DNA of 64,000 bases from Gammaproteobacteria bacterium (GTDB lineage Bacteria; Pseudomonadota; Gammaproteobacteria; Eutrophobiales; Eutrophobiaceae): the NCBI GenBank assembly GCA_965220815.1, contig OZ244846.1, forward strand, positions 1,987,620 to 2,051,619, in the 5' to 3' direction. The translations under genes were made by a program, and so were the position numbers. Of this stretch, positions 8,602 to 38,217 are shown piece by piece. The notes under the pieces were generated by a model. That model ran no database searches. It had not been told where the DNA came from and saw nothing but the letters and a program-made list of their open reading frames with translations. How positions within the stretch are numbered: position 1 is the stretch's first letter; each line of letters starts with the position of its first letter.

Positions 8602-8653
8602 TATGTTATGATCGCGGCATCACCGAACCGATGAAATTCTGGAGCAAAAAATC

Positions 8654-13850: not shown

Positions 13851-13946
13851 TTTAACCAGTACCTTTTCCTGATATATAATTCTTGACTATTGTATTCGCA
13901 GAAACTAACCTGTACATGTTGGTTCGCTTTAAATGAAGGGGGCGTT

Positions 13947-16259
13947 ATGAAAACACAACATCACAAAACATACTACATAAGCCACATTCTGATTCCGGCC
14001 GTGGCCGGTTTGCTGTTATGTTCCGGTGCAGCCCGGGCCCAGGTGCTCGAGGAGATCGTGGTCACCGCGCAAAAGCGCGCGGAAGACCTGCAGGACACGC
14101 CGGTTGCCGTAACCGCGTTCACCGGGGAGCAACTGCAGCAGGCCGGTGTTTATGATGCCATCGGGCTCAGCAACGTCGTACCCAATGTGACCATAGGCAC
14201 CGAAGACGCCAGGGACGCAATTTTCATCAATATACGCGGCATTTCCCAGTCGGAACGCAGGAATACCTCGGACCCGACTACCGCGTTCTACATGGACGGC
14301 GCCCTGGTGCCGCGCATGTCCGGCGTCAACGCCTACTTTTACGATGTTGAGCGCATCGAAGTGCTGCGCGGCCCACAGGGCACGCTGTACGGTCGCAACA
14401 GCACGTCGGGAGTGGTCAATGTTATTACCAGGAAACCCGACCTGGAAGCGTTCGGGGGCGATATCCAGGTGGGTTACGGTAATTACGATGCGGTTGATGT
14501 AAGAGGCGCCCTGAATGTGCCTTTTTCAGACAGTTTCGGCGCGCGCGTCGCGTTCACCTATAACGAACGGGATGGTTACCGGGACAACAGTCCGGTTGCC
14601 GACGGCGACGACCTGGATGATGTCGGCGTGCGCGGCCACCTGCTCTGGGATATCACTGAAAATACCTCGCTGCTCCTCTCGGCGGACTACTATGAACACC
14701 AGGGTGTCGGACCGGTGCTGGCCCAGGTGGAATGCCCCGACCTCGGGTGCAACATCCCGATACCCCCGGACCCTGCCGACGCCAACCCGCTCAATACGGA
14801 AGGTTTTCGCGATAATACGGATACGAATTTCAAGGTCGAACTGAACCACTCGTTCCCGTTTGCCGACCTGACCTTCATCGGTTCCTACCGGGACCATGAA
14901 CGGGATTACCTGATGGATACCGACGGCACCGGCGCTTCCGTCTTCCTGCCGCCTGCCGGCAGGTTGGTTCCTATCGACACCATTGTCGTGGAACAGACGG
15001 AATCCGAGTCATTTTCGGGCGAACTCCGTTTGAATTCCAACACGGACGGCCGCTTCCAGTGGATCCTGGGGGGCTTTTACCTGGATGAGGATATCGCGGG
15101 CGATTTCCGTTACCAACCGGTGTTGCCGAACGGCGCGCACTTGAATGTGCAGTTTGTCGATAAAGGTTTCAACGTGGAGTCCTGGGCGGTGTTTGCCAAT
15201 GCTTCCGTGGATGTCACCGACCGGTTCACCCTGAACGGCGGCATTCGTTATACGGAAGATGAGAAAGACAAGGGCGGCGTCAACGACCCCGCCAATCCTA
15301 CGGCCGGCAGTTATATGACGGTCACCGTAAGAGAACTCGGCAGGCCCGTCGCGCCGGTATTTCCCCGCGCCCAGGTGTCGAATCCGTCCTGGAGTGAGGT
15401 TACTTATTCGTTCGGTCTTGACTGGCATATCAACGACGACACTCTTGTCTATATCAAGACCAGCAAGGGTTTCAAGTCGGGCGGTTTCAACCGCGGCAGC
15501 GTGGATCCCTTTCAACCGAGCGGCGCGCCCAATGTAGCAAACCTGATCGTCTATAACCCGGAGCAGGTGCTCGCCACGGAAGGCGGCATCAAATCCACTT
15601 TCATGGACGGCCGCGCCCGCGCTAACTTCAGTCTGTTCTGGTATGACTATTCCGACAAGGAGGAAGCCGTGGTGCGCGTCATTGGCGGGATCCCGACCAA
15701 TACGGCGATCAACGCGGGGCAGGCAACCATTTACGGGGCGGAACTGGAAACCTCGTTCCTGTACGGCGATCATGGCGGGCGCATCGATCTCAACATCGGC
15801 TGGCTGGATGCGGAATTCGATGAATTCGTCGGCCTGGACGATCCCCTGACGGCCGGCCAGGACAACCTGGACCTGGGCGGCGGTGAAATGGTCAATGCGC
15901 CGGACTGGAACATCAGCGCCACCTGGGTGCCCGTCGAGCTGGAAGTAATGAATGGAATATTACATCCCATGGTCCAGTTTTCGTTCAAGTCAGACTATAT
16001 AACACGGCCCCATAATCAATCGGTAGACCAGCAGGATTCCTACACCCGCACCAATGCAAGCCTGCACTGGGAATCCAGCAAAACCGGCCTGTTCCTGGAA
16101 GGTTTCGTGCATAACATAGAGAACGAGGACATCCAGACCGTATCGACGTGTCAACAGCAAGTCAATGGCGTGGCGGGAACACCCTTCCCCGGACTGGGCT
16201 GTACCCATATGTATCAACCGCCCCGCACCTACGGCGTGCGGCTGGGGTACAGGTTCTAG
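13947..16259 (+). CDS. TonB-dependent outer-membrane receptor
   Basis: Signal peptide, then a TonB-box/plug (EEIVVTAQKRAEDLQDTPVAVTAF), a 22-strand barrel body and a C-terminal aromatic residue (RLGYRF). RBS AAGGGGG precedes the ATG at 13947. Confidence 0.85.
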   Translation: MKTQHHKTYYISHILIPAVAGLLLCSGAARAQVLEEIVVTAQKRAEDLQDTPVAVTAFTGEQLQQAGVYDAIGLSNVVPNVTIGTEDARDAIFINIRGISQSERRNTSDPTTAFYMDGALVPRMSGVNAYFYDVERIEVLRGPQGTLYGRNSTSGVVNVITRKPDLEAFGGDIQVGYGNYDAVDVRGALNVPFSDSFGARVAFTYNERDGYRDNSPVADGDDLDDVGVRGHLLWDITENTSLLLSADYYEHQGVGPVLAQVECPDLGCNIPIPPDPADANPLNTEGFRDNTDTNFKVELNHSFPFADLTFIGSYRDHERDYLMDTDGTGASVFLPPAGRLVPIDTIVVEQTESESFSGELRLNSNTDGRFQWILGGFYLDEDIAGDFRYQPVLPNGAHLNVQFVDKGFNVESWAVFANASVDVTDRFTLNGGIRYTEDEKDKGGVNDPANPTAGSYMTVTVRELGRPVAPVFPRAQVSNPSWSEVTYSFGLDWHINDDTLVYIKTSKGFKSGGFNRGSVDPFQPSGAPNVANLIVYNPEQVLATEGGIKSTFMDGRARANFSLFWYDYSDKEEAVVRVIGGIPTNTAINAGQATIYGAELETSFLYGDHGGRIDLNIGWLDAEFDEFVGLDDPLTAGQDNLDLGGGEMVNAPDWNISATWVPVELEVMNGILHPMVQFSFKSDYITRPHNQSVDQQDSYTRTNASLHWESSKTGLFLEGFVHNIENEDIQTVSTCQQQVNGVAGTPFPGLGCTHMYQPPRTYGVRLGYRF

Positions 16260-16446: not shown

Positions 16447-16815
16447 ATGCTGAAATCCATAACAATAATTCTGGTCCTGGCAGTGCCTTCATTTGCGGCG
16501 GCTGCCGGGTTTCCGACAGTTGAAACGGTCAGGCAGGTCGTCAGTTGCATGGCCGGGCTTGGCGACCAGACCGAAGAAAACCTGTTGACCTGCGCCTGCC
16601 GGCAGGACGTGATTGAAGCCGGGATAAGTTTTGAGATTTTCGAACAGGCCAGCCTGCAGGAGCGCTATAACCGGATGCCGGGCAAACGCGGCGGCCTGTT
16701 CCGTGACGATAAGATAAGCAGGGAACAACTCAAGCAGTTGAAAGACGTCAGGAAGCAGGCCCTGGCGGCATGCCCCGCAGTAAAAAAGGTCAGGCGGGCA
16801 GAGGAAGTACAGTAA
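16447..16815 (+). CDS. small secreted Cys-containing protein, hypothetical
   Basis: 122 aa with a signal peptide (MLKSITIILVLAVPSFAAAAG). Flanked on both sides by copies of the same hairpin. Confidence 0.4.
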   Translation: MLKSITIILVLAVPSFAAAAGFPTVETVRQVVSCMAGLGDQTEENLLTCACRQDVIEAGISFEIFEQASLQERYNRMPGKRGGLFRDDKISREQLKQLKDVRKQALAACPAVKKVRRAEEVQ

Positions 16816-16821
16816 ATCCGT

Positions 16822-16857
16822 TAAGGAACCTCTGATTAAGTCCAGAGGTTCCTTAAT
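16822..16857. repeat. REP-like hairpin, AGGAACCTCTG family, copy 2 (14-bp perfect stem), convergent terminator position
   Basis: TTAAGGAACCTCTGattaagtcCAGAGGTTCCTTAA, lying between the stops of convergent genes. Confidence 0.75.
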
Positions 16858-17689
16858 TCACCGCAAAATTCGAAGACCAGGAAGCGTTCTTGGTATCCGT
16901 TGCCTGGACCGTCAATGTCCCCTCGTTTTCCGGCACGAAGAAGAAACGCAGGCTTGGGTCCATGCTGATGGCAAAGGTCAATATTGCTTTCATTACCGGA
17001 GCCCCGTTGTAATCGACACTCAACGTGTTGACGAAATGGGCGGGGGGATGGACGTGGGAGCCTATCCGCATCGGTTGCAACCCGGTTATGTTGGGGTGCT
17101 TGATCCTGATCTGCATCAGGTTCGGCTTGCTGTATTCGACATCGCCGATCAGTTTCATTTTCATCATGCCCATGTTGGCGATGGAATCACCGATGCTCTT
17201 GGGCGGCGGCGCGGAACATGCGCCCCTTGCCCTGGTAAAACTCTTGACCATGTACAGTTCGCCGGTATTCAATTCGGCGACGGCGCGGACATAGGTATGA
17301 TCATTTATCCTGACGCGCATGGCCAGGTCGGCCTTGCCGCTGGCCGGCGTAAAATCGAAGATGCCCACCAGCGGGACCGGGTTCTTGTCGATGAAGACAT
17401 GCATCCGTTGTATATACAGTTCATCGGTCTGGGGAATTTTGGTATGTATGGTAACGGGAGCGAGCGTTGCATCTTCCGCCGCGTACGGCACTCTTATTTC
17501 CAGAACGCTCTGCTCGGCGTCTTCAATGATTTCCCGGTCCTGGAAGGCTGCATGGCGTGAATTCTCCTCCCAGGCCTGGTCCGACAGTTTCTGCCGCCAG
17601 TCAGGAGGCATCACGTCCGCCGCCACTGACGGCGCCCAGATGAGTATCAGTGCAACATATACGAGCGTTTTTATGGTTGTGTTCAACAT
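16853..17689 (-). CDS. periplasmic protein, possibly a quinoprotein-dehydrogenase-associated SoxYZ-like carrier
   Basis: Signal peptide (MLNTTIKTLVYVALILIWAPSVAA) with RBS GGAGA upstream. About 275 aa, beta-rich, with a single conserved-looking Cys (RARGACSAPPP). The family call is a guess from size, context next to xoxF and memory of the TIGR04557 family. Confidence 0.35.
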   Translation of the reverse strand: MLNTTIKTLVYVALILIWAPSVAADVMPPDWRQKLSDQAWEENSRHAAFQDREIIEDAEQSVLEIRVPYAAEDATLAPVTIHTKIPQTDELYIQRMHVFIDKNPVPLVGIFDFTPASGKADLAMRVRINDHTYVRAVAELNTGELYMVKSFTRARGACSAPPPKSIGDSIANMGMMKMKLIGDVEYSKPNLMQIRIKHPNITGLQPMRIGSHVHPPAHFVNTLSVDYNGAPVMKAILTFAISMDPSLRFFFVPENEGTLTVQATDTKNASWSSNFAVN

Positions 17690-17797
17690 ACGTTTCTCCA
17701 TAAATTCCCAGCGTTGGTTCAGGTGATTGATTTTATCCATCAAAGTATACAATATCGAAAATATCATTTCCAGATTTTACGTTATATTCAGATGGGT

Positions 17798-18195: not shown

Positions 18196-20196
18196 ATGAG
18201 TAAATTTTCCTTCAGTAAATGGATAATTGTCTCCCTTGCCCTGTTCATGTCTTTACCAGCTTTCGCGAATGATGGTCTCAGAGAGTTGATGAAAGACCCG
18301 AACTACTGGGTATTTCCGGGCGGCAATTATAACAACTGGCGTTATTCTGAACTGGATCAGATTAACAGAGGTAACGCCGGTGACCTGGTGGCTGCGTGGA
18401 CGTTCTCGACGGGACGCCTGCAAGGCCATGAGGGAGGTCCGTTGGTCCTGCCGCCCAGTGAGACGGGTCTGGCTACCGACCACCTGTATATCCACGCATC
18501 ATTCCCGAATGATGTTTTTGCCATCGATCTCGAGACCCTGGAAATCACCTGGGACTTCGTGCCCGCGCAGGACGAGGAAGCAACCGTTCCCAAGATGTGT
18601 TGCGACATCGTAAACCGCGGTCTGGGTTACGGCGACGGGCAGATCTACCTGCAAGCCGCCGACACCACTTTGTATGCCTTGAACCCGAAGGACGGCAGCA
18701 TTATCTGGCAGACAAAGAACGGCGCGGACATCTCTGACGACATGGTTGGCCACGATACCGGCGGCAGAGGTTATGGCCCGCATAACGGCATGACCAACAC
18801 CAACGCCCCGCACCCGATTAAGGACAAGGTCTTTACCGGTTGCTCCGGCGCCGAGTTTGGTGTGCGCTGCTGGATCGCCGCTTTCAATGCGAGCGACGGC
18901 AGCCTGGCATGGCGTGCGTTCAGCATGGGTCCGGACGAGGATATCCTGTTTGACGAGAATACCACGTCCATGGGCCAGCCGGTCGGCGCGGATTCTTCCC
19001 TGAAGACCTGGTGTGCGTTTGACGCCGAAGTCAGCACCGGCAAGAGCTCCTGGGGCGAGATGGCCCTGCGTGCCAATTCTGCAGAAGAGCGTACGTGTAA
19101 AGAGACATCCGACCAGTGGGTGATCGGTGGCGGTTCCGTATGGGGCTGGTGGCCTGCCGACTTCGATGAGAACCTGATGTACTACGGCAACGGCAACCCC
19201 GGCACCTGGAACCCGGTCGTGCGTCCCGGCGACAACAAGTGGTCCATGACCATTTTTGCCCGTGATATCGACACCGGCGTGGCTCGTTGGGCATACCAGA
19301 TGACGCCTCACGATGAGTGGGACTATGACGGTATCAACGAGATGATCCTGGCCGAACTGGATGTTGGCGGCACCATGACACCGGCCCTGGTTCACTTCGA
19401 CCGTAACGGTTTCGGTTATACCATGAACCGTAAGACCGGCGAACTGCTGGTAGCGGAGAAGTATGATCCGGCCGTTAACTGGGCAACCCACGTCGATATG
19501 AAGACGGGTTATCCCCAGGTCGTTAATGAGTTCAGCACCCACTACAACGGACAGGACGTTGTCTCCAAGGATGTCTGCCCTGCGGCACTGGGAACAAAGG
19601 ATCAGCAGCCTGCTGCCTACTCCCCGAAAACCAACCTGTTCTATGTACCCACAAACCACGTCTGCATGACTTATGAACCGGTCAGCTACGACGCTGGTGG
19701 CGTTACTTATGAACAGGCAGCCGGCAGTTGGTATGTGAATGCCAACCTGACGATGTATCCGGCCGGCCAGGTTATGGACAACGGCACGACCAATATGGGC
19801 AACTTTATTGCCTGGGATGCAAGCGAAGGCAAGATCGTATGGTCTATTCCTGAGCGTTGGTCGGTATGGAGTGGCGCACTGGCAACCAATGGCGACGTAG
19901 TCTTCTACGGCACCCTCGAAGGATATGCCAAAGCGATTGATTCCGAGAGCGGCAAACTGCTGTGGCAGTTCAAGACTCCGTCCGGCATTATCGGCAACTT
20001 CAACACCTGGTCCCACAAGGGCAAGCAATACGTTGGTGTGCTTTCAGGCATCGGCGGATGGGCTGGCGCTGTTGTGGCTATCCCGGTTCTGCGTGACATG
20101 TCCGGCGATGCGGCGCTCGGCGCTGTCGGCGGCTATCGCGCACTGTGGAATTCAACACGTAACAGTGGCGTGTTGATGGTGTTCAGCCTGCCGTAG
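18196..20196 (+). CDS. xoxF: lanthanide-type PQQ-dependent methanol dehydrogenase XoxF
   Basis: Strong RBS AGGAGGAGG. Signal peptide, vicinal disulfide MCCDIVNRG, and PHDEWDYDG (an extra Asp two residues after the catalytic Asp, the XoxF signature; MxaF has Ala there). 666 aa. Confidence 0.9.
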   Translation: MSKFSFSKWIIVSLALFMSLPAFANDGLRELMKDPNYWVFPGGNYNNWRYSELDQINRGNAGDLVAAWTFSTGRLQGHEGGPLVLPPSETGLATDHLYIHASFPNDVFAIDLETLEITWDFVPAQDEEATVPKMCCDIVNRGLGYGDGQIYLQAADTTLYALNPKDGSIIWQTKNGADISDDMVGHDTGGRGYGPHNGMTNTNAPHPIKDKVFTGCSGAEFGVRCWIAAFNASDGSLAWRAFSMGPDEDILFDENTTSMGQPVGADSSLKTWCAFDAEVSTGKSSWGEMALRANSAEERTCKETSDQWVIGGGSVWGWWPADFDENLMYYGNGNPGTWNPVVRPGDNKWSMTIFARDIDTGVARWAYQMTPHDEWDYDGINEMILAELDVGGTMTPALVHFDRNGFGYTMNRKTGELLVAEKYDPAVNWATHVDMKTGYPQVVNEFSTHYNGQDVVSKDVCPAALGTKDQQPAAYSPKTNLFYVPTNHVCMTYEPVSYDAGGVTYEQAAGSWYVNANLTMYPAGQVMDNGTTNMGNFIAWDASEGKIVWSIPERWSVWSGALATNGDVVFYGTLEGYAKAIDSESGKLLWQFKTPSGIIGNFNTWSHKGKQYVGVLSGIGGWAGAVVAIPVLRDMSGDAALGAVGGYRALWNSTRNSGVLMVFSLP

Positions 20197-20229
20197 ACCG
20201 AACAAACTTTTCACAAAGTTTGTAGTTAT

Positions 20230-20264
20230 ATCCCCGGTATCGATGATACCGGGGATTTTTTTTG
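20230..20264 (+). terminator. rho-independent terminator after xoxF
   Basis: ATCCCCGGTATCgatGATACCGGGGAT (12-bp stem) followed by TTTTTTTT. Confidence 0.85.
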
Positions 20265-20361
20265 GAACTTACCGGAGAATCATCAATCATAGCTGTATGC
20301 CCAATAGCGGCGGGTTATGTTATGATGATCGCAAAAATAACAGGTAAAGGGGATAGAGAAT

Positions 20362-20832
20362 ATGTATTTGAAAAGAAGTCTTTTTATTGTTTTGTTTTTA
20401 CTTGGATCCTTGCAGGCGTCCGCCCAGCAGATTCACGTCATTAACGCTGAGGCGCGTATATTCAACCCGGACGTGATATACGTAAAACCGGGCGATAACG
20501 TGAGATTCGTCAATATGACGTCCCATGACGCCGTATCGATTAATCAGGTGCCGCTTCCCGACGGCCAGGTGTTCGAGGGAATGCTTCCCGAAGGCGCTGA
20601 AGGCTGGAAAAGTAAAATGGGCAACGACTTTACCTTGCAAATGGATATAGAGGGTGTGTATCCATACGTATGCATTCCCCATATCGGCTTCGGAATGGTG
20701 GGTGTCATAGTGGTAGGTGAGCCGGTTAACGTTGATGCCGCCATGGATGCTGCGAGAGCCAACCTTACGGGTCCTTATCGCCGGCTTATCGGCAAGATCC
20801 TCAAGGTGCAGCGGGCCGCAAAAAAGGGTTAA
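20362..20832 (+). CDS. pseudoazurin-like type-1 blue copper protein (cupredoxin)
   Basis: Signal peptide. Copper ligands His (MTSHD) and Cys-x-Pro-His-x4-Met (YVCIPHIGFGMVG), the classic pseudoazurin/plastocyanin motif. About 130 aa mature. Confidence 0.75.
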   Translation: MYLKRSLFIVLFLLGSLQASAQQIHVINAEARIFNPDVIYVKPGDNVRFVNMTSHDAVSINQVPLPDGQVFEGMLPEGAEGWKSKMGNDFTLQMDIEGVYPYVCIPHIGFGMVGVIVVGEPVNVDAAMDAARANLTGPYRRLIGKILKVQRAAKKG

Positions 20833-21707
20833 TGAAAATGAAAAGGTACTTTTTGGCGTGCTTGCTGTTGTTGAACGGCGCGCCCGCCATGGCGATTGAT
20901 GTCGAAGAAATGACCGTGTTGAAGGTATGCGCCGACCCGTACATGCTGCCTTTTTCCAATCTCAAGGAACAGGGTTTTGAGAACAGGATAGCTGAATTGT
21001 TCGCCGAGAAACTGGGTGTGGAACTGCAGTATGAGTTTTTTCCCCAGAGGATCGGGTTCATCCGCAATACCCTCAGGGCGGAATCCGAATCAGGTACCGG
21101 GTACAAGTGCGACCTGGTGATGAGCGCGCCGGTCAATTTCGAACGGGCTGCGGCTACAAATCCTTATTACACGTCTTCCTATGCCCTGGTATTGGCAAAG
21201 GGGCGGGGGATGGATGATGTGACATCGCCCGAAATGCTGGTCGATAAGGTAAAAAACGGCGGCCTGAAAATAAAGTTCGGCGTGACCGATCGCGGGCAGG
21301 ACCAGTTCTGGGTCTTCAGACACGGACTGATGAGGAGTATAGTGCCGTACCAGGGACAGCCCGGCGACCCCGAGGAGTATCCGGGCAAAACCCTGACCGA
21401 GGATTTGATTTCAGGGAAAATCGATGCGGCGATCATCTGGGGACCTATCATAGGCTATTTTTCCAGGACCATGGAAGGCGGCGAGGATCTCATCATCCTG
21501 CCGTTGGGCGATGACCCTACGACACCCTACCTGAAATTTTCATTCACCGTGGCCATGGCGGTCAGGCACGGGGAACAGGAATGGAGAGACAAGGTAAATC
21601 AACTCATCGCCGAAAACCAGGCGGAGATGAACGCCATCATGGAGAGCTACGGAGTGCCCTTGCTGCCCATAGAAAAAATCGAAATAAGAGATGATGACGA
21701 CGACTGA
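20832..21707 (+). CDS. xoxJ: quinoprotein dehydrogenase-associated periplasmic binding protein (MxaJ/XoxJ family)
   Basis: Signal peptide. LKVCADPYMLPFSN matches the MxaJ signature. SBP type-3 fold size (291 aa). TAATG overlap with the cupredoxin gene. Confidence 0.8.
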   Translation: MKMKRYFLACLLLLNGAPAMAIDVEEMTVLKVCADPYMLPFSNLKEQGFENRIAELFAEKLGVELQYEFFPQRIGFIRNTLRAESESGTGYKCDLVMSAPVNFERAAATNPYYTSSYALVLAKGRGMDDVTSPEMLVDKVKNGGLKIKFGVTDRGQDQFWVFRHGLMRSIVPYQGQPGDPEEYPGKTLTEDLISGKIDAAIIWGPIIGYFSRTMEGGEDLIILPLGDDPTTPYLKFSFTVAMAVRHGEQEWRDKVNQLIAENQAEMNAIMESYGVPLLPIEKIEIRDDDDD

Positions 21708-21711
21708 GATT

Positions 21712-21880
21712 TATCCGCAGATGACGCAGATAAACGCAGATAATATTAATGTTGCAGTGCAAATTGTGTAGCACTTGTTTATACAACGAAGAATCTGAAA
21801 TGTTTGCAGACTTGAGAATACATCCTGAAGAAAAGGAAACACATAAAAACATCTGCGCTAATCTGCGTCATCTGCGGATA
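21712..21880. mobile_element. MITE-like inverted-repeat element B (169 bp)
   Basis: TA|TCCGCAGATGACGCAGATAAACGCAGAT ... ATCTGCGCTAATCTGCGTCATCTGCGGA|TA. Starts 4 nt after the xoxJ stop. Confidence 0.7.
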
Positions 21881-22618
21881 ATTTTATGCGTTCTATGGCT
21901 GTTTTCAGCGCCGCCGGCTTTCGCTGAGGAAGCGGATGAAGACGTAGAAGTAAAAGGGGCCACCATCGGCAGGATGGGCGACCCCGCAGTGGTTGACCCG
22001 AACACCTACGAGTTTGCCGACGCGGAGGTAAAACTCTGGATGGATAATCACCTCAGGAACATCGACAGCCCCGGGCGGCTCTATTATGATTTCGTCAAGC
22101 GCGGCAGTTACGAGGAAGGATTCAGTGACTCGGTATTCCTGGATATCCTCAAGGTTAATGAGGATGGCAGTAAGGACGCCGACCTGGAATTTTTCACCGC
22201 GGACAGGCAACAGGATGCCCGGCGTGATAACCTGGTCGGCATAACGGGTAACCCGGTGCTGGTTGTATACATGCAGGGTGATGTCTACGAGATGAACCGC
22301 CTTACCAACGGTAGCTGGCGTTATTTCCAGAGGCGTATCAAGTCGGCATTTGCCGAGAACGCGAAAATAGAGCCGGTTACATTCGAGTATGACGGCGCTG
22401 AGATGACAGGGGAAAAGATTTCCATCACCCCGTATGTCAACGATCCCAGGCGCAGACAGTTCGCCGCGTTCGCTCCAAAGCTTTACGAGTTTATATTATC
22501 CGACCAGGTGCCGGGGAAACTGTACCAGATCAAGACAGTCATACCGGCCGGTTCACCGGACGGTGAACCGTTGATGGAAGAGATCCTGACCCTGCAAAAC
22601 GCAGAATTCGCGAACTGA
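21797..22618 (+). CDS. hypothetical periplasmic protein whose 5' end is encoded inside MITE B
   Basis: Downstream of the MITE, ILCVLWLFSAPPAFA|EE reads as the signal h-region and cleavage site. The only in-frame start codons (21749, 21797) lie inside the MITE. The body is D/E-rich with no recognised domain. Confidence 0.4.
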   Translation, partial: EMFADLRIHPEEKETHKNICANLRHLRIILCVLWLFSAPPAFAEEADEDVEVKGATIGRMGDPAVVDPNTYEFADAEVKLWMDNHLRNIDSPGRLYYDFVKRGSYEEGFSDSVFLDILKVNEDGSKDADLEFFTADRQQDARRDNLVGITGNPVLVVYMQGDVYEMNRLTNGSWRYFQRRIKSAFAENAKIEPVTFEYDGAEMTGEKISITPYVNDPRRRQFAAFAPKLYEFILSDQVPGKLYQIKTVIPAGSPDGEPLMEEILTLQNAEFAN

Positions 22619-22628
22619 GGTTTCCGCC

Positions 22629-23447
22629 TCAGCCCCTGTTCAGCAGCACCATGACCTCGCCCTTGCCGTCGTTGGCGAGATCGCCGGTGTACAGGCGCAC
22701 TTCCGGACCGAAGTTGCGAAAAAACCGGTAACGGCTTCCCATCCGGGACAGTTGCTTGAAAAACAGGCGCAGGTATTCCATCTTCAGCGCGCCGCAATTT
22801 GCCAGGGTGGTTCCGATACGGTCCGGCCGCCTGCCCAGGATGATGGTCCCGCGTTTCATTCCGTAGCCCGGGAGTCTGCCGGATTTGCCCAGGATCAATA
22901 TCGTGCCGGCAACCATGCCGGAACCGCTGAAATCGCCCGCATCGCCCCCGATCATGATCATGCCGCGCCGCATCCTGTCGCCGATTCGGTTCCCGGCATT
23001 GCCCCATACCGTTATCAGCCCGTCACGCATCCCGTACGCGCCGGTGTGTGTCCCGGCCCCGATGTAATCGCCGGCGTCGCCTTCCACGTCGATCCTGCCC
23101 CACTCCATGTCGCAACCCAGCCAGTCGCTGCAACTGCCGCTGACCTTTATTGTGCCGCCTTTCATGCCATGGCCGAGGTAACTGCCGCCGTGGGCCTTGA
23201 CGCTGATATGGCCGCGGGTCATCTGCGCGCCAATCCGGGTTACCAGTTCTGTAGTGCGGCGCAATTCGATGTGCTCATGGTTCTCCCCACTGATGGAAAA
23301 CAGCTCTCCGAGTCTGGTTGGTCTGGAACCGTAATCCAGTTTCAGATCGGTAATCTGTTGCACAGCCGACAACCTGTCCGGTGTCAATGATGACAAATCC
23401 AGTCGCCATCGCGGCTTTTTCTTCAGGGTGAAAATCATGGGCTTCAC
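22629..23447 (-). CDS. fhcC: formyltransferase/hydrolase complex subunit C (FwdC-like beta-helix), set 1
   Basis: Repeated GxxxGxG[ML]xxGxI beta-helix units typical of FwdC/GltB C-domain. GTG start; 4-nt overlap with upstream ftr. Confidence 0.85.
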   Translation of the reverse strand: MKPMIFTLKKKPRWRLDLSSLTPDRLSAVQQITDLKLDYGSRPTRLGELFSISGENHEHIELRRTTELVTRIGAQMTRGHISVKAHGGSYLGHGMKGGTIKVSGSCSDWLGCDMEWGRIDVEGDAGDYIGAGTHTGAYGMRDGLITVWGNAGNRIGDRMRRGMIMIGGDAGDFSGSGMVAGTILILGKSGRLPGYGMKRGTIILGRRPDRIGTTLANCGALKMEYLRLFFKQLSRMGSRYRFFRNFGPEVRLYTGDLANDGKGEVMVLLNRG

Positions 23448-24340
23448 TGTAATATGTCCCTGAGGTGGAAGTGATACTGCCCCAGTTTCCCGCCATAGTT
23501 TCCCGCACTGATTCGGTAGATGCCCTTGTCGGGCCCGTTTTTGCAGACAGCCTCGACCCCGGCGCGCATGGCTTCGCTTATCGCAGTTTCATTTAAACCA
23601 TCGATGACAATTTCCAGGACGGAACCGACCTCTTCGGTAAGCGTGCTGTTTACCCGGCCTTTCAGGGTGGGGCAGAATACTTCGTTGGTGGAGGCCGGTA
23701 AAAATGAATATTTGGACCCTACCTTGGAGCCGGACCCGACAATGCCGCCCGGGAACGTAGTGACCGCGCCTTCTACCGCCCTGATTGCTTTTACCGCTTT
23801 TTCACAGGCGTTCAGGCCGTGGCGGGATGTCTTTGCCATTACCAGGAAGTTGCCGCCGCCGATGGCGGGGACCACGCCGGTAGTCTCCTCGCACAGGAAT
23901 TCGCCGTGCATGACCGGGATGCGCCAGTAGCGGATTCCGTCCAGTATCTTTGATATCTGGTAACCGTCGCCGAAATACCTCAGGCTTTTTCCCAGGGGCA
24001 GCATGGTATCGCTGTGGGTCCCGGCAAAACAGGCGCTGGTTGCGGTGGTCATCACGGATTGGCCGACGCGCCGGGTGAGCTGGTCCGCGAGTTGGGATTT
24101 GGACATGGCGAACATGATGATCGCCACACCGGGCCTGCCGTCCGGGGTTTCATCGGGTCCCAGTTCCCGTTCTATGTCGGCCTCACAACCGCAGGCTATC
24201 ACGGAAGAGGCGAACCCGGTCAGTGAGTTGGCCGCGATGTATGCGTACTTCATGGTCATCGCGGTGATGATCAACCGGGTCGCCTTCATGGGGAAGGCCT
24301 CGGCAAAGGTATCGTCGATGGTTACGCCGTTGATATTCAT
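23444..24340 (-). CDS. fhcD: formylmethanofuran:tetrahydromethanopterin N-formyltransferase (Ftr/FhcD), set 1
   Basis: 298 aa. Ftr family similarity, and paralogous to 30169..31056 (about 50% identity by eye). Confidence 0.85.
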   Translation of the reverse strand: MNINGVTIDDTFAEAFPMKATRLIITAMTMKYAYIAANSLTGFASSVIACGCEADIERELGPDETPDGRPGVAIIMFAMSKSQLADQLTRRVGQSVMTTATSACFAGTHSDTMLPLGKSLRYFGDGYQISKILDGIRYWRIPVMHGEFLCEETTGVVPAIGGGNFLVMAKTSRHGLNACEKAVKAIRAVEGAVTTFPGGIVGSGSKVGSKYSFLPASTNEVFCPTLKGRVNSTLTEEVGSVLEIVIDGLNETAISEAMRAGVEAVCKNGPDKGIYRISAGNYGGKLGQYHFHLRDILQ

Positions 24341-24350
24341 GTTTATTCTA

Positions 24351-24606
24351 TATCCACAGATGACACAGATGAACGCAGATGATTTATTGTTTATTTATCC
24401 ACAGATTACACAGATTACACAGATATTTTCAGGTGTTATTTGTGTGCGTCTCCGGTTATCATTCCCGCGCAAGCAGGGACTCAACAGATAAATTCTTCCG
24501 TTTCAAAAAAAGTTTTTTACCTGCCATGTGTTTACATTCGTGATGTTAAGCAGAAGGATATGAAATCATTTCAATCATCTGTGTTAATCTGTGTAATCTG
24601 TGGATA
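24351..24606. mobile_element. MITE-like element inside the fhc operon (256 bp, two left ends and one right end)
   Basis: TA|TCCACAGATGACACAGATGAACGCAGAT, then a second TTATCCACAGATTACACAGATTACACAGAT at 24394, then the right end CATCTGTGTTAATCTGTGTAATCTGTGGA|TA at 24577-24606. The fhcA stop codon (24584-24586) lies inside the right end. Confidence 0.7.
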
Positions 24607-26260
24607 AGTCCCGTTTGCAGTCATGCACCAGCAGAGAATGCTGGTTGTAGCCTTCAAGTTCGTCCCGGCTGATTTTGAAATTCTCAAGGCTCATGGTCAT
24701 GTACCTGTCGAAGTAGCGTTTAAGGGGTTTCTCTATTCCCGGGTCGTATTCCGGTTCGACCACGTGGGTGGAGGTAGCCGGGATGGCGCAGACCTTGCCG
24801 TTCCTGACGCAGGGTTCGCCGCGCTTGAATACGTATTCCGGTTTGCCGAACATGGTCTCGAGGTTGTCGTCGGGCGTGTACACGGTGATATCCGCTATTG
24901 CCCCGATGCCGAGGTGGCCCAGGTCCCGGAGGCCCAGGCTCCGTGCCGGCGCGGCGCGGGTGATGATCGCTATCTCGTATAACGAGTATTCCCGGTCGAG
25001 TGAGGACAGGACGCTGGCGCCTGCTGCGTCCCTGTTTATCGCGCCCAGCATGTCGTTGCGGAAACTCCTGTCCATGAGCAGCCTGATCAGGTGCGGGTAA
25101 AAGGTAAACGGCGCGCCGTTGGGATGGTCGGTGGTCATGAACACGCGCCAGGGATCATTCACGAGCAGGAATATTTCCAGGCCGATGCACCACTGCAAGG
25201 CGTTGACAAAATTTTTGTCCCGGTAACGGAACGGCACCACGCCGCAGCCTGCATCGCATTCGATATCCATGCATACCCATTTTTTCGGGTTGGCATGAAC
25301 ATGTCCCCTGTGTTGCATCATGGTATCGGCGGAGGCGGTGACCGTCTGGCCGAACATGACCTGGCCTACGTCAATGGACAGGTTCGGGTTCAGGTTTACC
25401 GCCTCTGCCAACTGTGCCGCCGCGGATGAGAATTTCCTGTCCCCTTCCTGCCCGTAACTGTGGAACTGTACGTGGGTCAGGTGCATGGGTCTCCCCTCGG
25501 CCGAAGCTATGGTGTCGAGGGTCGTCCGGTAATTGCCCGGCACCCCCAGGTTGCAGGCATGGACGTGCAGCGGGTGGGGAACGCCGATGGCCTCCAGCGC
25601 ATCGAGCAGGGCGGACAGGATGGCGCGCGGCGTTAATCCGTAATATTTGTTGGATTCATCCAGGTCCAGCTTTCTCTGGTTGAACTTGAACGCGTTGATG
25701 CCTCCGGGGTTGACTACCTTGACGCCCATGGCCCGTGTTGCCTGTATGGTCCACGCCACGTAATCGTTGACAAGTTGCGAGTCCCTGTTGCGTTGTAGCA
25801 GGCGTAACAGGAAATCATCATTTCCGAGCAGGACATAAGCGCCGGTATCCAGCATGGGAGTATCGGCCATCTCCAGGTGCGACTGGCGTGCATTCACCGG
25901 CATCATGGCCGGTTCGAAACAGGAGGTATAACCCATTTCGGCATAGCGGTATCCGGTAACGAAACTGCTTGGCGCGATGCTGCCTGAACCGGAGCGCATC
26001 AGCATGTCGGGAGCAACGGGGTTGCCGGCGTGGTCCTCAGCCAGCAACATCCTGGCGATACTGACCTTGCCTCCGCCGATATGGGTGTGGATATCGATAC
26101 CGCCCGGCATGACGACGCGCCCGGCCAGGTCCAGTACCCGGTCAATCCTGCCTGCAGTCGCCGGATCGGCCAGCCTGCCGTCCTCGATATACAGGTCCAT
26201 AACCTTGCCGTCTATCCCGTTCGCCGGGTCGTAAACCTTTCCGCCTTCGAGCTTGATCAT
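24584..26260 (-). CDS. fhcA: formylmethanofuran dehydrogenase subunit A homolog (amidohydrolase), set 1
   Basis: 558 aa. Metal-dependent amidohydrolase motifs (PGGIDIHTHIGGGK ...HVHAC...). Paralogous to 31053..32690. The last 7 codons are encoded by the MITE terminal repeat. Confidence 0.85.
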   Translation of the reverse strand: MIKLEGGKVYDPANGIDGKVMDLYIEDGRLADPATAGRIDRVLDLAGRVVMPGGIDIHTHIGGGKVSIARMLLAEDHAGNPVAPDMLMRSGSGSIAPSSFVTGYRYAEMGYTSCFEPAMMPVNARQSHLEMADTPMLDTGAYVLLGNDDFLLRLLQRNRDSQLVNDYVAWTIQATRAMGVKVVNPGGINAFKFNQRKLDLDESNKYYGLTPRAILSALLDALEAIGVPHPLHVHACNLGVPGNYRTTLDTIASAEGRPMHLTHVQFHSYGQEGDRKFSSAAAQLAEAVNLNPNLSIDVGQVMFGQTVTASADTMMQHRGHVHANPKKWVCMDIECDAGCGVVPFRYRDKNFVNALQWCIGLEIFLLVNDPWRVFMTTDHPNGAPFTFYPHLIRLLMDRSFRNDMLGAINRDAAGASVLSSLDREYSLYEIAIITRAAPARSLGLRDLGHLGIGAIADITVYTPDDNLETMFGKPEYVFKRGEPCVRNGKVCAIPATSTHVVEPEYDPGIEKPLKRYFDRYMTMSLENFKISRDELEGYNQHSLLVHDCKRDLSTDYTD

Positions 26261-27492
26261 GCCGCGCTGCCGGTTATATGTGACAGGACCTGGCCGATGA
26301 CGGTAGCGGCACTGGGGGCGCCCGATTCCCTCAGCTTTTTCAAAGGCAGGCTTATGACGCCGTCCGTCCTGAACAGGGTGCCGGCATGGTCTATGCCGGG
26401 AACGCCCGTGGGAATGTAAACGTCTGCATCACTCGTCCCGGCACTGTACGGAGACAGGATGATCACAGGTACGTCCAGGTCCGGGGGCATTTCTTCGGCA
26501 AACCCCGATATCCACAACAGGCTGTCCACGTCCGCCGGGTGTACGCCGGCGCCGGAAGGACGCCCGCCGTTGAAATCGACTGCAGCCGGGAAGCCGGTCT
26601 GCCAGGTGGCTACGCTCTGCCAGGATGCGCCGCCGTTGCTGCCGCCCAGGGATAAACCGGCAAAACGCTGCCTCGCGTTAAGGTCGCGCAACAGGTCCTG
26701 CGCCGAACTGATGACGAAGTCGGCCTGATCCTGGGGCAGGGCTGCGGGGCTCCATACCAGTACGCCGTATTGCGCGTCCCTGATCATGCCGGCAACCTGT
26801 TTCAGTTTACGGGTTTTTGACGCCGGTATTTTTCTGAAATCCGGCAGTTGCCGGTCGGCCAGCAGGGCGCGCAGCAGCGCGAAGTTGTCGGCGATTTCAT
26901 CACCCTGGCCGGAAAGGACCGCAGGCTCATGGTGGTCGCAGCCGGCCAATTCGGTCCTGCCCGGCCTGCCCAGGTAAGCCAGCTTCTTGTGTTGCCCCGC
27001 GAACAATGAATGGGGCGTGTTGATGAATCGCTCGATAAACCGGGGATAATTGCCGCAGACATTATTGCCGATAAAGATGACGACGTCCGCACGGTTCTTT
27101 ACCTCCGCCAGGGTGGCCGTGATCCCGCCGCGTGCCTGCAACGCTTTCAGGTTATGCAGGGACTGGTTTTCCTGCGAATGCAACAGCGCCGCATCCGTCT
27201 TTTCGGCCAGTTGCAGGGCTGCGCGCAGGCCGTTAACGTCTGTGCCGAGGCCGGCGATCAATGGTTTGCGGGACTTGCGCAGGAGTTTTGCCGCAGCGCT
27301 TAAGGCTTGTCCCACAGTTGCAGGAGCGCCCCTGACAGAGGCTTCCGATGCCGGGGGCGGGGCGGAAAAGCCCTGCCTGGCAAGCCGGCAGGCATTGGCG
27401 GAGACGCTGAGTTGATTCTTCTGTGCGCGAAGCGTCAGGTCATCGCATAACAGGCTGCAGAACGGACAGGTGACGTTATCAATCGACGCCAT
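26257..27492 (-). CDS. fhcB: formylmethanofuran dehydrogenase subunit B homolog lacking the metal-ligand Cys (Fhc type), set 1
   Basis: Start at MASIDNVTCPFCSLLCDD, an N-terminal Cys cluster. At the position aligned to CHGPS of the paralog it reads SLHNL. The track ORF extends 96 codons further upstream as R/G/Q-rich junk overlapping fprA. Confidence 0.8.
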   Translation of the reverse strand: MASIDNVTCPFCSLLCDDLTLRAQKNQLSVSANACRLARQGFSAPPPASEASVRGAPATVGQALSAAAKLLRKSRKPLIAGLGTDVNGLRAALQLAEKTDAALLHSQENQSLHNLKALQARGGITATLAEVKNRADVVIFIGNNVCGNYPRFIERFINTPHSLFAGQHKKLAYLGRPGRTELAGCDHHEPAVLSGQGDEIADNFALLRALLADRQLPDFRKIPASKTRKLKQVAGMIRDAQYGVLVWSPAALPQDQADFVISSAQDLLRDLNARQRFAGLSLGGSNGGASWQSVATWQTGFPAAVDFNGGRPSGAGVHPADVDSLLWISGFAEEMPPDLDVPVIILSPYSAGTSDADVYIPTGVPGIDHAGTLFRTDGVISLPLKKLRESGAPSAATVIGQVLSHITGSAA

Positions 27493-28865
27493 CAATCCAG
27501 CAGGGCCAGCATTTCGCTGACGTAAGTGAATTTCTCCCTGGGTTTGTCCACAGGTTCGCCGCGCGCGATCTCGGCGGCATCGATTATTTTCCAGTCTGCG
27601 AAACTGATATGGCGTATGTTGCGCCGGTCCAGGACCTCGTAACAGCCCTCGGCGCCGCGCTTGTTTTCCCCATTTTGCAGATTGTCCAGATTGTCCAGGT
27701 CTTCCAGCAACATCCGCACGGTTTCCACGCTGTCCGCCTTGTTGGTGCCGATGATGCCGGTGGGACCGCGCTTGATCCATCCGGCGGTATACAATCCCCG
27801 TTCAACCGTACCGTCCTTCATGACCCTGCCTTTATCATTGGAAAAGACCCCGCGGGCTTCATCAAACGGCACCCCGGGCATGGGTATGCCGTGGTAGCCG
27901 ATACTGCGAAAGACGATACCCGTGTCGAGAGTGAATGTTTCTCCGCTGCCCCTGGCCGATTGCCGGAACGATTCTCCCGACAGGGAGTTTTTTTCTATCA
28001 GCAGGCTTTCCACCCGGCCGTCGCCGAGTATTTCCCTGGGACTCTTCAGGAAGGTGAAAATACAGCGCCTGTCCCCCCCCGCCTCACGGTCGGCAAATCC
28101 GCAGAACAGGTCATAGATTTTTTTGTTGCCGGTATTTTCCAGTTCAGCTTCACTTTCCGGGTTCAACAACAGTTCGCCCGCATCGATGACCGGGTCGCAG
28201 TCGGCCAGCGCGCCGAATTCCTTCAATTCCTTGGAGGTGAACTTGGCCTGCGCCGGCCCGCGCCGGCCGATAACGTAGATGTTTTTGATTTTACTGGTCG
28301 CAAGTACATCCAGGGCATGTTCGGATATGTCGGTGTGTTTCAATTCATCAACAGTCTTGGCCAGTATCCGGCTCACGTCGGCAGCCACGTTGCCCTGGCC
28401 GATAATGACGGCGGTTTCATGGGACAGGTCGAATTGCCTGTCGCGATAATCGGGATGGCCGTTATACCAGCCGACAAATTCCGTTGCCGTGTAGCTGCCG
28501 GACAGGTCCTCACCAGGGATGCCCAGGCGGCGGTCGGTTTCGGCGCCGCAGGTGAGGATCACGGCATGATGGTTTGCCCGCAATTCGTCAATGCTGATGT
28601 CCCTGCCCGCAGCCACGTTGCCGATGTAATTGAACTGTTCCGCCTCGGCAAGCCTGGCATAGACCTTGATAGCCTGTTTCAGTTTTGGATGGTCGGGCGC
28701 AACGCCGCTTCTTACCAGGCCGTAAGGTACGGGCAGGCGCTCGAACATATTGACCCTGAATTCGATGCCCGCCTTGATGAGCGCGTCTACGGCGTAGAAG
28801 CCGCTGGGGCCGCTGCCTACGACGGCGACTGTCAGGGGATTATCCGGGGTTCCTAATCGACTCAT
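27492..28865 (-). CDS. fprA: NADPH:ferredoxin (adrenodoxin-type) oxidoreductase, FprA family
   Basis: VAVVGSGPSGFYA FAD site at the N-terminus. WIKRGPTGIIGTNKAD and overall colinearity with M. tuberculosis FprA, from memory. Its stop overlaps the fhcB start. Confidence 0.8.
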   Translation of the reverse strand: MSRLGTPDNPLTVAVVGSGPSGFYAVDALIKAGIEFRVNMFERLPVPYGLVRSGVAPDHPKLKQAIKVYARLAEAEQFNYIGNVAAGRDISIDELRANHHAVILTCGAETDRRLGIPGEDLSGSYTATEFVGWYNGHPDYRDRQFDLSHETAVIIGQGNVAADVSRILAKTVDELKHTDISEHALDVLATSKIKNIYVIGRRGPAQAKFTSKELKEFGALADCDPVIDAGELLLNPESEAELENTGNKKIYDLFCGFADREAGGDRRCIFTFLKSPREILGDGRVESLLIEKNSLSGESFRQSARGSGETFTLDTGIVFRSIGYHGIPMPGVPFDEARGVFSNDKGRVMKDGTVERGLYTAGWIKRGPTGIIGTNKADSVETVRMLLEDLDNLDNLQNGENKRGAEGCYEVLDRRNIRHISFADWKIIDAAEIARGEPVDKPREKFTYVSEMLALLD

Positions 28866-29346: not shown

Positions 29347-30156
29347 CTATCCTGCATATAATAATATTTCTCCCCGGTTCAACTCAACACTGTCCCCGCA
29401 ATAGCGTTTATACGAGCCCTGCAGGTATTCTTCAGCAATTGCGAATACCCGGGACAGGTGCAATAAATAAAGTGTCATGTAACCCGGCCGGTAGGTGCAG
29501 GAATAGCTGAACGTGGGCAGTAACGGAGCGTCTTTCATGCTGACGATGGATCCCCGCTTCATCCCTGCCCCGGTGCGGATGCCGAGTTCTCCCAGGACGA
29601 ATATGCTGCCGGACAACATGTTGACGCCGGTAAAGTCACCGCTGTTGCCGCCCACAGCGATCAGCCCGCCACGGATGGCGTTGCCGGTCTCGTTGCGCAC
29701 GTTGCCGTGAATGATGATTTCCCCTCCTGTCATGCCCACGGATGCTCCCCGATAGGCGCTGCCGACAAGGTGGCCTGCATTACCGTGAATTTCGATTTTC
29801 CCCCCCGACATCTCCGGTCCGACCCAGTCGGTGGCATTGCCGTTGACTCGGATTTCCCCTCCGCTCATGCCGGCGCCCAGGTGTTCGCCCACGTCGCCTT
29901 CAACCCGGATTGTTCCCCGGGACATGCCGGCGCCGATGAATTTCACCCGCCCCAGGTCATCACCCTGCAGGTCGATGACCCCGTCATAGCAGCCCGTAAC
30001 GCTGAAGAAGTCCCCGATGGATCGGGACTCGCTGCCGTGCATGACCGTCAGTCTTTCCACGTCAGCCGCGCCCTGGCCGGTGAGCCGGTCAGGCGTGACG
30101 TTATCGGCCTCCATGGGCACGTCCGGCGCGGCAATCTGTCTCAGTAATAAAGGCAT
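29347..30156 (-). CDS. fwdC: formylmethanofuran dehydrogenase subunit C, set 2
   Basis: 269 aa with the same GxxGxxG beta-helix repeats as fhcC. Confidence 0.8.
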   Translation of the reverse strand: MPLLLRQIAAPDVPMEADNVTPDRLTGQGAADVERLTVMHGSESRSIGDFFSVTGCYDGVIDLQGDDLGRVKFIGAGMSRGTIRVEGDVGEHLGAGMSGGEIRVNGNATDWVGPEMSGGKIEIHGNAGHLVGSAYRGASVGMTGGEIIIHGNVRNETGNAIRGGLIAVGGNSGDFTGVNMLSGSIFVLGELGIRTGAGMKRGSIVSMKDAPLLPTFSYSCTYRPGYMTLYLLHLSRVFAIAEEYLQGSYKRYCGDSVELNRGEILLYAG

Positions 30157-30168
30157 ATCATTGTGCTG

Positions 30169-38134: not shown

Positions 38135-38217
38135 CAGACCTTTACGGAGGTATCATGTTTAAAATTCTTGACAAACTTTGTAGCATTTTTAAATCCGATG
38201 AAGAAGGAGGTAATGAA

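Follow-up and report, generated by a model that had tools for sequence, protein, structure and literature searches.

A stretch of 64,000 nucleotides from contig OZ244846.1 (assembly GCA_965220815.1, Gammaproteobacteria bacterium, order Eutrophobiales), called the window below, carries a gene for a lanthanide-type methanol dehydrogenase (XoxF) that is followed by one for a blue copper protein, or cupredoxin, of the pseudoazurin type. The latter occupies the position held in canonical XoxF5 clusters by XoxG, the dedicated c-type cytochrome. Judged from sequence comparison and structure prediction, this cupredoxin is probably the dedicated periplasmic electron acceptor of XoxF in place of XoxG. 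The assignment follows from its replacement of the cytochrome in the same slot, from conservation of the arrangement down to 42% identity and across varied flanks, from the common periplasmic location and intact redox site, from the distinct surface of the accompanying XoxF, and from a membrane-anchored relative of the cupredoxin. The cassette consists of the following genes.

16447 to 16815, plus strand: unk122, a small secreted protein with a conserved C...CxC...C pattern
16853 to 17767, minus strand: a fused SoxY-SoxZ-like carrier ('quinoprotein dehydrogenase-associated SoxYZ-like carrier'; TIGR04557, 211 bits, cut-off 140)
18196 to 20196, plus strand: xoxF, a predicted lanthanide-type pyrroloquinoline quinone (PQQ) methanol dehydrogenase of 666 residues, from a distinct XoxF5-like subclade
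20362 to 20832, plus strand: the cupredoxin, a predicted pseudoazurin-type blue copper protein of 156 residues with a signal peptide
20832 to 21707, plus strand: xoxJ, an accessory protein with a periplasmic binding-protein fold
21749 to 22618, plus strand: unk289, a conserved secreted protein, always 3' of xoxJ

By family score and motifs, the XoxF of the window is a predicted lanthanide-dependent methanol dehydrogenase. It scores 597.5 bits against TIGR03075, the NCBIfam model for methanol/ethanol PQQ dehydrogenases (cut-off 480), and its closest structures in the PDB are 6DAM, the XoxF of Methylotuvimicrobium buryatense (E 2e-217), and 6OC5, the XoxF1 of M. extorquens (1.3e-206), both of which score far above XoxF2 (4MAE), the MxaF enzymes, and ethanol dehydrogenases. 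The vicinal cysteines lie in MCCD (residues 134-137), the metal-ligand Glu and Asn are both found (in GAEFGVR and GNP), and the lanthanide Asp motif reads DEWDYDG (residues 373-379), a D-x-D arrangement with the extra coordinating Asp. MCCD, GAEFGVR, GNP, and DEWDYDG are kept in 58 to 62 of the 62 aligned XoxF sequences, and a scan for C..CH finds no haem-binding motif in the enzyme. A preliminary description of this DNA, made from the letters alone, had called the gene lanthanide-type because of its WDYDG, and the motif, the family score, and the match to 6DAM all bear this out.

The protein encoded after xoxF is, by sequence, ligands, and predicted fold, a pseudoazurin-type cupredoxin with an intact type-1 copper site. 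It matches Pfam PF00127 (Copper-bind) at E 7.5e-11, its signal peptide ends in ...SLQASA/QQ, and its type-1 copper ligands are H55 and those in the loop C104-I-P-H107-I-G-F-G-M112. Two alignments, of 23 and 44 homologues, show no variation at H55, C104, H107, and M112, nor in the surrounding motifs N-M-x-S-H and C-x-P-H-x-G-F-G-M or in a basic C-terminal helix (GPYRRLIGKLLKVQRAAKK). The best PDB sequence match is the Sinorhizobium pseudoazurin 3TU6 (8.5e-19), after which come about 20 more pseudoazurins and then plastocyanins. An AlphaFold2 model from the alignment of 44 sequences (mean predicted local distance difference test score, pLDDT, 89.5; predicted template modelling score 0.81) consists of a beta-sandwich and two C-terminal helices (124-134 and 137-155), the hallmark of pseudoazurins. 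When this model is searched against the PDB with Foldseek, the first 27 entries are all pseudoazurins (target TM 0.74-0.80), and plastocyanins and amicyanin rank far lower. The pseudoazurin-like nature proposed earlier from a His, a Cys-x-Pro-His-x4-Met series, and a signal peptide is therefore upheld by the domain match, the ligands, and the signal sequence, and profile search and structure prediction on the 156-residue protein, which had been named as the way to check it, give the PF00127 match and the pseudoazurin fold.

The cupredoxin is at the same time a predicted divergent relative, and not an equivalog, of the pseudoazurins of denitrification, since its score against the pseudoazurin equivalog model TIGR02375 (82.2 bits) falls under the cut-off of 109.85. 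With the denitrifier proteins (from Achromobacter, Alcaligenes, Paracoccus, and Sinorhizobium; 3TU6, 1BQK, 1PAZ, 1ADW) it shares the fold, the ligands, the C-x2-H-x4-M loop, and the two C-terminal helices. It differs from them in an identity of only about 30% to characterised pseudoazurins, in an extra loop, and in its location in a xox rather than a nir or nos cluster. The loop is an 11-residue insertion (residues 60-70) placed right after the first His ligand in the subgroup to which the window belongs. Homologues in the protein collection number 441, mainly metagenomic and 'MAG: Gammaproteobacteria bacterium' records (MAG, metagenome-assembled genome), and the source annotation goes no further than 'plastocyanin/azurin family copper-binding protein' or 'pseudoazurin'.

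The nature of the substitution becomes clear from canonical XoxF5 clusters. On a plasmid of Sagittula stellata E-37, xoxF5 is followed by a 'c-type cytochrome, methanol metabolism-related' (179 residues, CHVCH), xoxJ, and a CXXCW protein, with SoxYZ-like carriers, a 119-residue hypothetical protein, and a second cytochrome c gene adjoining xoxF5 in the vicinity. Plasmid pAZKH of Azoarcus sp. KH32C carries xoxF, a cytochrome c (132 residues), xoxJ, the hypothetical genes hyp242 and hyp116, a zinc metallohydrolase, and a SoxYZ-like carrier. The canonical xoxF5-xoxG-xoxJ cluster is also present in Methylorubrum extorquens AM1. The window resembles these clusters in its XoxF catalytic motifs, in having xoxJ right after the acceptor gene, and in the presence nearby of unk289-like and unk122-like genes and of a SoxYZ-like carrier. 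It departs from them in that its acceptor gene encodes a pseudoazurin with type-1 copper where they have a CxxCH cytochrome, and in the membership of its XoxF in a subclade with universal insertions. Comparison of the proteins themselves gives the following correspondences.

window XoxJ and Azoarcus XoxJ: 44% identity
window unk289 and Azoarcus hyp242, the gene after xoxJ: 1.5e-29
window unk122 and Azoarcus hyp116 or Sagittula hyp119, both encoded beside a SoxYZ-like gene: 1e-8 and 9e-6
window SoxYZ-like carrier and the SoxYZ-like carriers of the canonical clusters: 34-37% identity

Since each of the other cassette genes has a canonical homologue, the acceptor gene alone differs, and the sequences make it probable that XoxG gave way to the cupredoxin at this very site, in a non-orthologous displacement. 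The canonical zinc metallohydrolase and CXXCW genes have no counterpart among the cassette genes examined, for which the NCBIfam scan took only some of the open reading frames (ORFs). The gene orders of Sagittula and Azoarcus agree with the earlier proposal that the cupredoxin fills the XoxG slot. One point of nomenclature in that proposal is to be corrected, as it equated cytochrome cL with XoxG: the name cytochrome cL belongs to MxaG, whose counterpart specific to XoxF is XoxG.

A cytochrome is missing from the slot and from its surroundings. In all six frames of the 64 kb, no stop-to-stop frame of 60 residues or more contains a C..CH motif, and none of the cassette loci has a conserved C..CH gene within roughly 10 kb; the scattered C..CH matches in relatives are shadow frames of known genes. 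The same scan found the cytochromes in two canonical loci used as a positive control (L091 and L093), and the earlier statement that no CxxCH protein is present nearby can thus be retained for the whole window.

The arrangement recurs widely among relatives. A cupredoxin-centred sample was obtained by scanning one genome per GTDB species, which yielded 80 loci that were compared by tblastn and blastp. In 68 of these, xoxJ directly follows the cupredoxin and is itself followed by unk289 where the contig reaches that far. Wherever the contig is long enough, xoxF lies directly upstream, with one exception (L030), xoxF being off the end of several short contigs among the 80 loci. The full order unk122(+), SoxYZ-like(-), xoxF(+), cupredoxin(+), xoxJ(+), unk289(+) is seen in 45 loci, a figure that includes the window and the contexts read first. 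Across the cassette loci, the lowest cupredoxin identity to the window is 42%. The flanking genes vary (fhc genes, an NAD-formate dehydrogenase, toxin-antitoxin and restriction genes, a TPR protein, and in L100 a pyrophosphatase and FTHFS), and the four-gene core stays intact; it is kept amid different flanks in L001, L026, L058, L098, and L100. A second, XoxF-centred sample took the best 120 XoxF homologues (94-65% identity), of which nine contexts at 65-80% were read. A Copper-bind gene stands between xoxF and xoxJ in seven of the nine and a cytochrome in none; the other two (L096 and L099) hold a lone xoxF followed by parE.

The carriers are all uncultured, and their record names point to sponge and coral MAGs, with one explicit sponge metagenome; the clade consists of uncultured Gammaproteobacteria from the sea, sponges, sediment, and groundwater. 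In the plasmid collection, the XoxF matches are all canonical (identity of 55% or less) and the cupredoxin matches are ordinary pseudoazurins. A cupredoxin from Methylophaga thalassica in that collection (38% identical) was set aside, as its context is one of copper resistance and not a xox cluster.

Two loci show variations on the theme. In L098 (7971-9281), tandem cupredoxins lie between a xoxF of 621 residues and xoxJ. The first of them is a 215-residue lipoprotein with a Met/His-rich stretch (MMGMHEPGMHPGQGPGMHEGD) before the cupredoxin domain, and the second is soluble and has 144 residues; together they could form a two-step copper relay. In L027 (7822-10001), which is a complete MAG chromosome, a 2.2-kb insertion parts xoxF from the cupredoxin and may be a mobile element.

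The remaining 12 of the 80 loci contain a paralogue of the lipoprotein type. This protein has 200-230 residues, an N-terminus with a lipobox, and a long low-complexity linker, and is about 55% identical to the xox-linked cupredoxin within the cupredoxin domain. Its loci (L007 at 8001-8651, L039-L041, L043, L044, L047, L049, L050, and L053-L056) are contexts unrelated to xox, with gidA, parAB, and atp close by in L007, and the paralogue and the xox-linked cupredoxin occur together in no fewer than eight genomes. The presence of a lipoprotein-anchored paralogue in the same lineages suggests that carriers of this kind already operate in their respiratory chains. The paralogue may serve respiration as a housekeeping carrier, and the xox-linked gene may have been recruited from it.

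The XoxF enzymes that accompany the cupredoxin are themselves distinctive. Their mutual identity is at least 69.5% (median 80%), whereas they are just 57-64.5% identical to 6DAM, the Sagittula XoxF5, and the Azoarcus XoxF, three enzymes that are 68-70% identical to one another despite coming from three proteobacterial classes. Pairwise identity and insertions thus define the cupredoxin-linked enzymes as an apparent subclade of their own, XoxF5-like in that the nearest structures are XoxF5 enzymes. Relative to 6DAM, the XoxF of the window has insertions at residues 86-93, 177-193, 273-305, and 498-502. The first is an eight-residue LPxSATGL placed after GGPLV, and the last a five-residue insertion with the motif SYxAGG. 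Between them lie a variable loop after residue 176 and, in most members of the subclade, a loop between two Cys that is roughly 20 to 30 residues long (residues 273-305). LPxSATGL and SYxAGG are present in all subclade members examined, including basal forms of 621-633 residues and lone forms of 614 residues, and are missing from all three XoxG-linked reference enzymes. These clade-specific surface insertions may be part of a docking site for the cupredoxin. The 11-residue insertion of the cupredoxin and the long loops of XoxF show no strict co-occurrence.

The spacer between xoxF and the cupredoxin holds conserved signals of its own.

20202 to 20263, plus strand: two conserved hairpins 3' of the xoxF stop, the second an intrinsic terminator
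20318 to 20326, plus strand: a putative extended -10 element (TGtTATGAT), in a block conserved in 9-11 close relatives of an 11-spacer alignment
20347 to 20353, plus strand: the Shine-Dalgarno sequence AAGGGGA for cupredoxin-xoxJ, conserved in the same alignment

The first hairpin (20202-20223) begins six bases past the xoxF TAG stop, and the second (20230-20256) has a 12-bp stem with seven G-C pairs and is followed by T7. Over 11 relatives, 98% of the cells of the double hairpin are paired and four pairs carry compensatory changes; in the terminator stem, these replace G-C by A-U in three sequences and U-A by C-G in one. Across the cassette loci, the spacer measures 143-582 nucleotides, and a hairpin of -19 kcal/mol or lower is found in essentially all of them (weakest -18.5), usually with a T-run after it. 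The strong terminator that the preliminary description placed at the end of xoxF is accordingly real as a sequence feature and kept in relatives. At 20318-20326, the consensus between close relatives is TGnTATGAT, and this conserved block suggests a promoter belonging to cupredoxin-xoxJ; a scan with a promoter consensus made no call at these positions. An Rfam scan of the window returned zero matches.

Further downstream, the TAA of the cupredoxin (20830-20832) shares one base with the ATG of xoxJ (20832-20834; GGTTAATGAAAATG), and a second in-frame ATG lies six nucleotides downstream of the first. The TAATG coupling noted earlier is thus present at 20830-20834, but the one-base overlap is confined to the closest relatives, the gap elsewhere being mostly 5-125 nucleotides; the few apparent overlaps in other loci are an artefact of crude start-codon choice. 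The identification of the downstream product as an MxaJ/XoxJ-family protein holds, with 231 bits against TIGR03871 ('MoxJ_2', cut-off 212) and a PDB match to the XoxJ structure 6ONP (2.5e-37).

Two further cassette genes lack a family assignment. The unk289 protein, with 344 homologues, has no Pfam match and no redox-cofactor motif; in a Foldseek search, its AlphaFold2 model (pLDDT 79.9) returns the half-barrels LprG and LolA at the top with TM values of 0.41 or less, which is weak. It was considered as a hidden redox partner and rejected, being without a cofactor motif and having a weakly LolA/LprG-like fold. The unk122 protein has no Pfam or NCBIfam match and is found in 50 loci, plus the window, among 76 cupredoxin-xoxJ loci. 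Their homologues in the canonical clusters indicate that unk122 and unk289 are unannotated accessory genes of XoxF systems generally, of the cupredoxin as of the cytochrome type. A SoxYZ-like fusion beside xoxF was noted earlier in symbiont genomes, with no mention of the acceptor gene (PMC11237559). The cassette proteins all have signal peptides, which places them in a common periplasm.

Under the proposed mechanism, periplasmic XoxF with its PQQ and lanthanide would oxidise methanol, a Cu(II) cupredoxin docked on XoxF would re-oxidise the reduced PQQ in two one-electron steps, and the Cu(I) cupredoxin would pass its electron on to an enzyme of respiration such as a terminal oxidase. The xoxF transcript would be abundant and mostly stopped at the conserved terminator, and the cupredoxin, xoxJ, and unk289 would be expressed less strongly, through transcription past the terminator, from an extended -10 promoter of their own, or both. 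Of this scheme, we infer that PQQ hands its electrons straight to copper, that the insertions play a part, that a respiratory enzyme is the next acceptor, and that the cupredoxin has a promoter of its own. The preliminary description had offered the acceptor role as a hypothesis; it stays one, though comparative genomics now speaks strongly for it. The midpoint potentials of pseudoazurin and amicyanin (about +260 to +290 mV) and of cytochrome cL and XoxG (about +170 to +260 mV) are similar, so that electron transfer from XoxF to the cupredoxin is thermodynamically plausible. In its broadest form, the proposal is that the first step of methanol respiration is haem-free throughout the clade, with XoxF passing electrons to a dedicated type-1 copper protein and with a XoxF surface that co-evolved for docking; the evidence leans slightly towards this form, in which LPxSATGL, SYxAGG, and the variable Cys-stapled loops may make up the co-evolved surface.

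Copper proteins are known to act as acceptors in several related systems. In the mau cluster, the acceptor gene has been swapped within the dehydrogenase cluster, with amicyanin or azurin serving methylamine dehydrogenase (PMC2680597). The mau system with amicyanin (azurin in Methylobacillus flagellatus) resembles the present one in pairing a periplasmic quinoprotein dehydrogenase of one-carbon (C1) metabolism with a cupredoxin acceptor encoded within the cluster. It differs in using the tryptophan tryptophylquinone (TTQ) cofactor in an unrelated enzyme family, whereas PQQ and a lanthanide are predicted here, together with a pseudoazurin-like cupredoxin. No TTQ dehydrogenase (mauA/mauB) is found among the window genes examined, the neighbours of the cupredoxin being xoxF, xoxJ, the SoxYZ-like carrier, and fhc genes. 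Azurin is also the natural acceptor of the type II quinohaemoprotein alcohol dehydrogenase of Pseudomonas putida (PMC8348568), which, like the pair proposed here, joins a PQQ alcohol dehydrogenase to a blue copper protein. In the type II enzyme, the electron exits via a fused haem c domain, whereas the XoxF of the window has no haem-binding motif, and transfer would therefore run directly from PQQ to copper. As far as these analogies reach, none of the cupredoxin precedents for quinoprotein dehydrogenases is a haem-less PQQ enzyme. A conceptual analogue is offered by plastocyanin and cytochrome c6 in cyanobacteria and algae, a copper protein and a c-type cytochrome that alternate for the same partners. 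That system is a regulated two-gene switch in one organism, whereas the replacement described here is apparently fixed within a clade; a link to the availability of iron and copper is speculation.

The surroundings of the cassette bear on its physiological setting. Directly upstream lies one more conserved gene.

13890 to 16259, plus strand: a TonB-dependent outer-membrane receptor (Pfam Plug and TonB_dep_Rec_b-barrel)

The receptor is found at the same place in L004 and L011-L025, the closest relatives, shows weak matches to siderophore and PqqU receptor models, and is a possible candidate for a lanthanide or PQQ importer. On the other side of the cassette, the window has two fhcC/fhcD/fhcA (formyltransferase/hydrolase) sets on the minus strand (22629-27780 and 29347-32690), which by tblastn in related loci are about 35-51% identical to each other. 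The genes mch and fae are also present, with associated coordinates 36250-37269 and 38131-38730 (both plus strand). The two fhc sets together with mch and fae make the window a dense tetrahydromethanopterin (H4MPT) C1-oxidation island; the fhc, mch, and fae genes, and the formate dehydrogenase that adjoins in relatives, form an expected setting for methanol oxidation.

A second PQQ dehydrogenase (2107-3927, minus strand, 606 residues) is of the ethanol-dehydrogenase type, with 1KV9 and 6ZCV as its best PDB matches (about 1e-79). Where XoxF has HDEWDYDG, this enzyme reads HDRWGYDV, with Gly at the usual position of the catalytic Asp. It has no adjoining cytochrome c gene, and its neighbour is an SBF-family transporter. 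The end of the window is taken up by a giant gene that runs on the plus strand from 39154 to beyond 64000 and leaves the window after more than 8,280 codons. Its GC content is about 70%, its product is rich in Thr, Ala, Val, Asp, and Gly, and the first 3000 residues contain nine Calx-beta domains. This gene accounts for the strong AT skew over the final 20 kb. An ORF of 5830 residues on the minus strand (46492-63984), which has no Pfam match, was dismissed as its antisense shadow.

Several observations weigh against the cupredoxin as the acceptor of XoxF. Direct transfer from PQQ to type-1 copper is, to our knowledge, without precedent. A strong terminator stands between xoxF and the cupredoxin, and co-transcription of the two is not assured. 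The electrostatics of the two proteins contain no consistent docking signal in net charge, the isoelectric points ranging from 4.8 to 9.6 for the cupredoxins and from 4.5 to 8.0 for the XoxFs. The partners can also be encoded apart: L096 (6001-9889) and L099 (6001-9904) have lone xoxF genes whose 614-residue products belong to the same clade and contain both LPxSATGL and SYxAGG, and in L030 (10001-12114) the 10 kb upstream of cupredoxin-xoxJ-unk289 contain no xoxF. All the carriers are uncultured Gammaproteobacteria related to one another, with a largely syntenic wider neighbourhood, so that part of the conservation is inheritance and the loci are not fully independent. The cytochrome scan, finally, covered the window and flanks of up to 10 kb rather than whole genomes.

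This last point leaves room for a XoxG encoded elsewhere that would be the first acceptor, with the cupredoxin as a second carrier that takes the role of cytochrome cH and delivers electrons to the oxidase. Canonical chains do have two carriers, and Sagittula has a second cytochrome c gene adjoining xoxF5. The lone xoxF genes of L096 and L099 and the xoxF-less L030 indicate that genes of the module can disperse, and the tandem cupredoxins of L098, one of them membrane-anchored, imply multi-step copper relays. Such an arrangement would nonetheless require relocation of xoxG plus an insertion at the old site, and it has to account for a cupredoxin exactly at the XoxG position in 68 genomes with no cytochrome in about 80 neighbourhoods. 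The clade-specific insertions on the XoxF surface also fit a change of the direct partner, and a second-carrier role is considered unlikely. A divergent XoxF subclade might instead oxidise mainly another substrate, such as formaldehyde or other alcohols and aldehydes, which the copper partner would reflect. Formaldehyde and alcohols other than methanol are known substrates of XoxF enzymes, and the subclade, with its four insertions, is 57-64.5% identical to the characterised XoxF5 enzymes. The catalytic and lanthanide motifs are, however, all conserved, the cassette sits amid H4MPT genes (fhcABCD, mch, and fae) with formate dehydrogenase adjoining in relatives, and the proposal concerns the substrate and leaves the question of the acceptor where it was; little weight is given to it.

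The cupredoxin might also not be a carrier of the methanol chain at all. It could serve in copper handling or act together with XoxJ, unk289, and the SoxYZ-like 'relay' proteins, or its position could be a matter of inherited gene order. The terminator and the probable separate promoter between xoxF and the cupredoxin are in keeping with this, as is the fact that the tightest coupling of the cupredoxin is to xoxJ rather than to xoxF. Synteny with hldE, waaA, and the fhc genes marks a vertically inherited region, and the Met/His-rich stretch of the L098 cupredoxin is typical of copper-trafficking proteins. A type-1 site that is complete and invariant, together with the pseudoazurin fold, speaks instead for electron transfer. 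The four-gene core, moreover, outlasts the change of flanks in L001, L026, L058, L098, and L100 and a fall in identity to 42%, and since the paralogue is found in other contexts, the xox-linked copy represents a distinct lineage that has been retained. A role outside the methanol chain is therefore regarded as rather improbable, and a dedicated acceptor of XoxF is the preferred reading of the cupredoxin.

No earlier description of a XoxF with a cupredoxin partner was found in open-access papers and the bioRxiv literature, and the apparent literature matches, which were a cupredoxin-fold hypothetical protein of the M. extorquens lut cluster, an entry in a reference list, and the mau cluster, proved unrelated. 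Both components are known kinds of protein within a XoxF module, and it is their pairing that is apparently new. The functioning of lanthanide methanol dehydrogenases is believed to be shaped by which XoxG they have and by its redox tuning, and we know of no XoxF enzymology to date that did not assume a cytochrome partner or use artificial dyes. If the cupredoxin is indeed the acceptor, the pair would constitute the first direct PQQ-to-cupredoxin couple and would add a third class of acceptor for methanol dehydrogenases, beside cytochrome cL and XoxG. It would also supply a physiological assay partner for XoxF that is easily monitored, being blue with an absorption near 600 nm. Surveys of methylotrophy based on xoxF-xoxG-xoxJ would miss or misdescribe a large clade of more than 68 species-level genomes. 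In marine methylotrophy, including that of sponge and coral symbionts, the economies of lanthanides, copper, and iron would be coupled.

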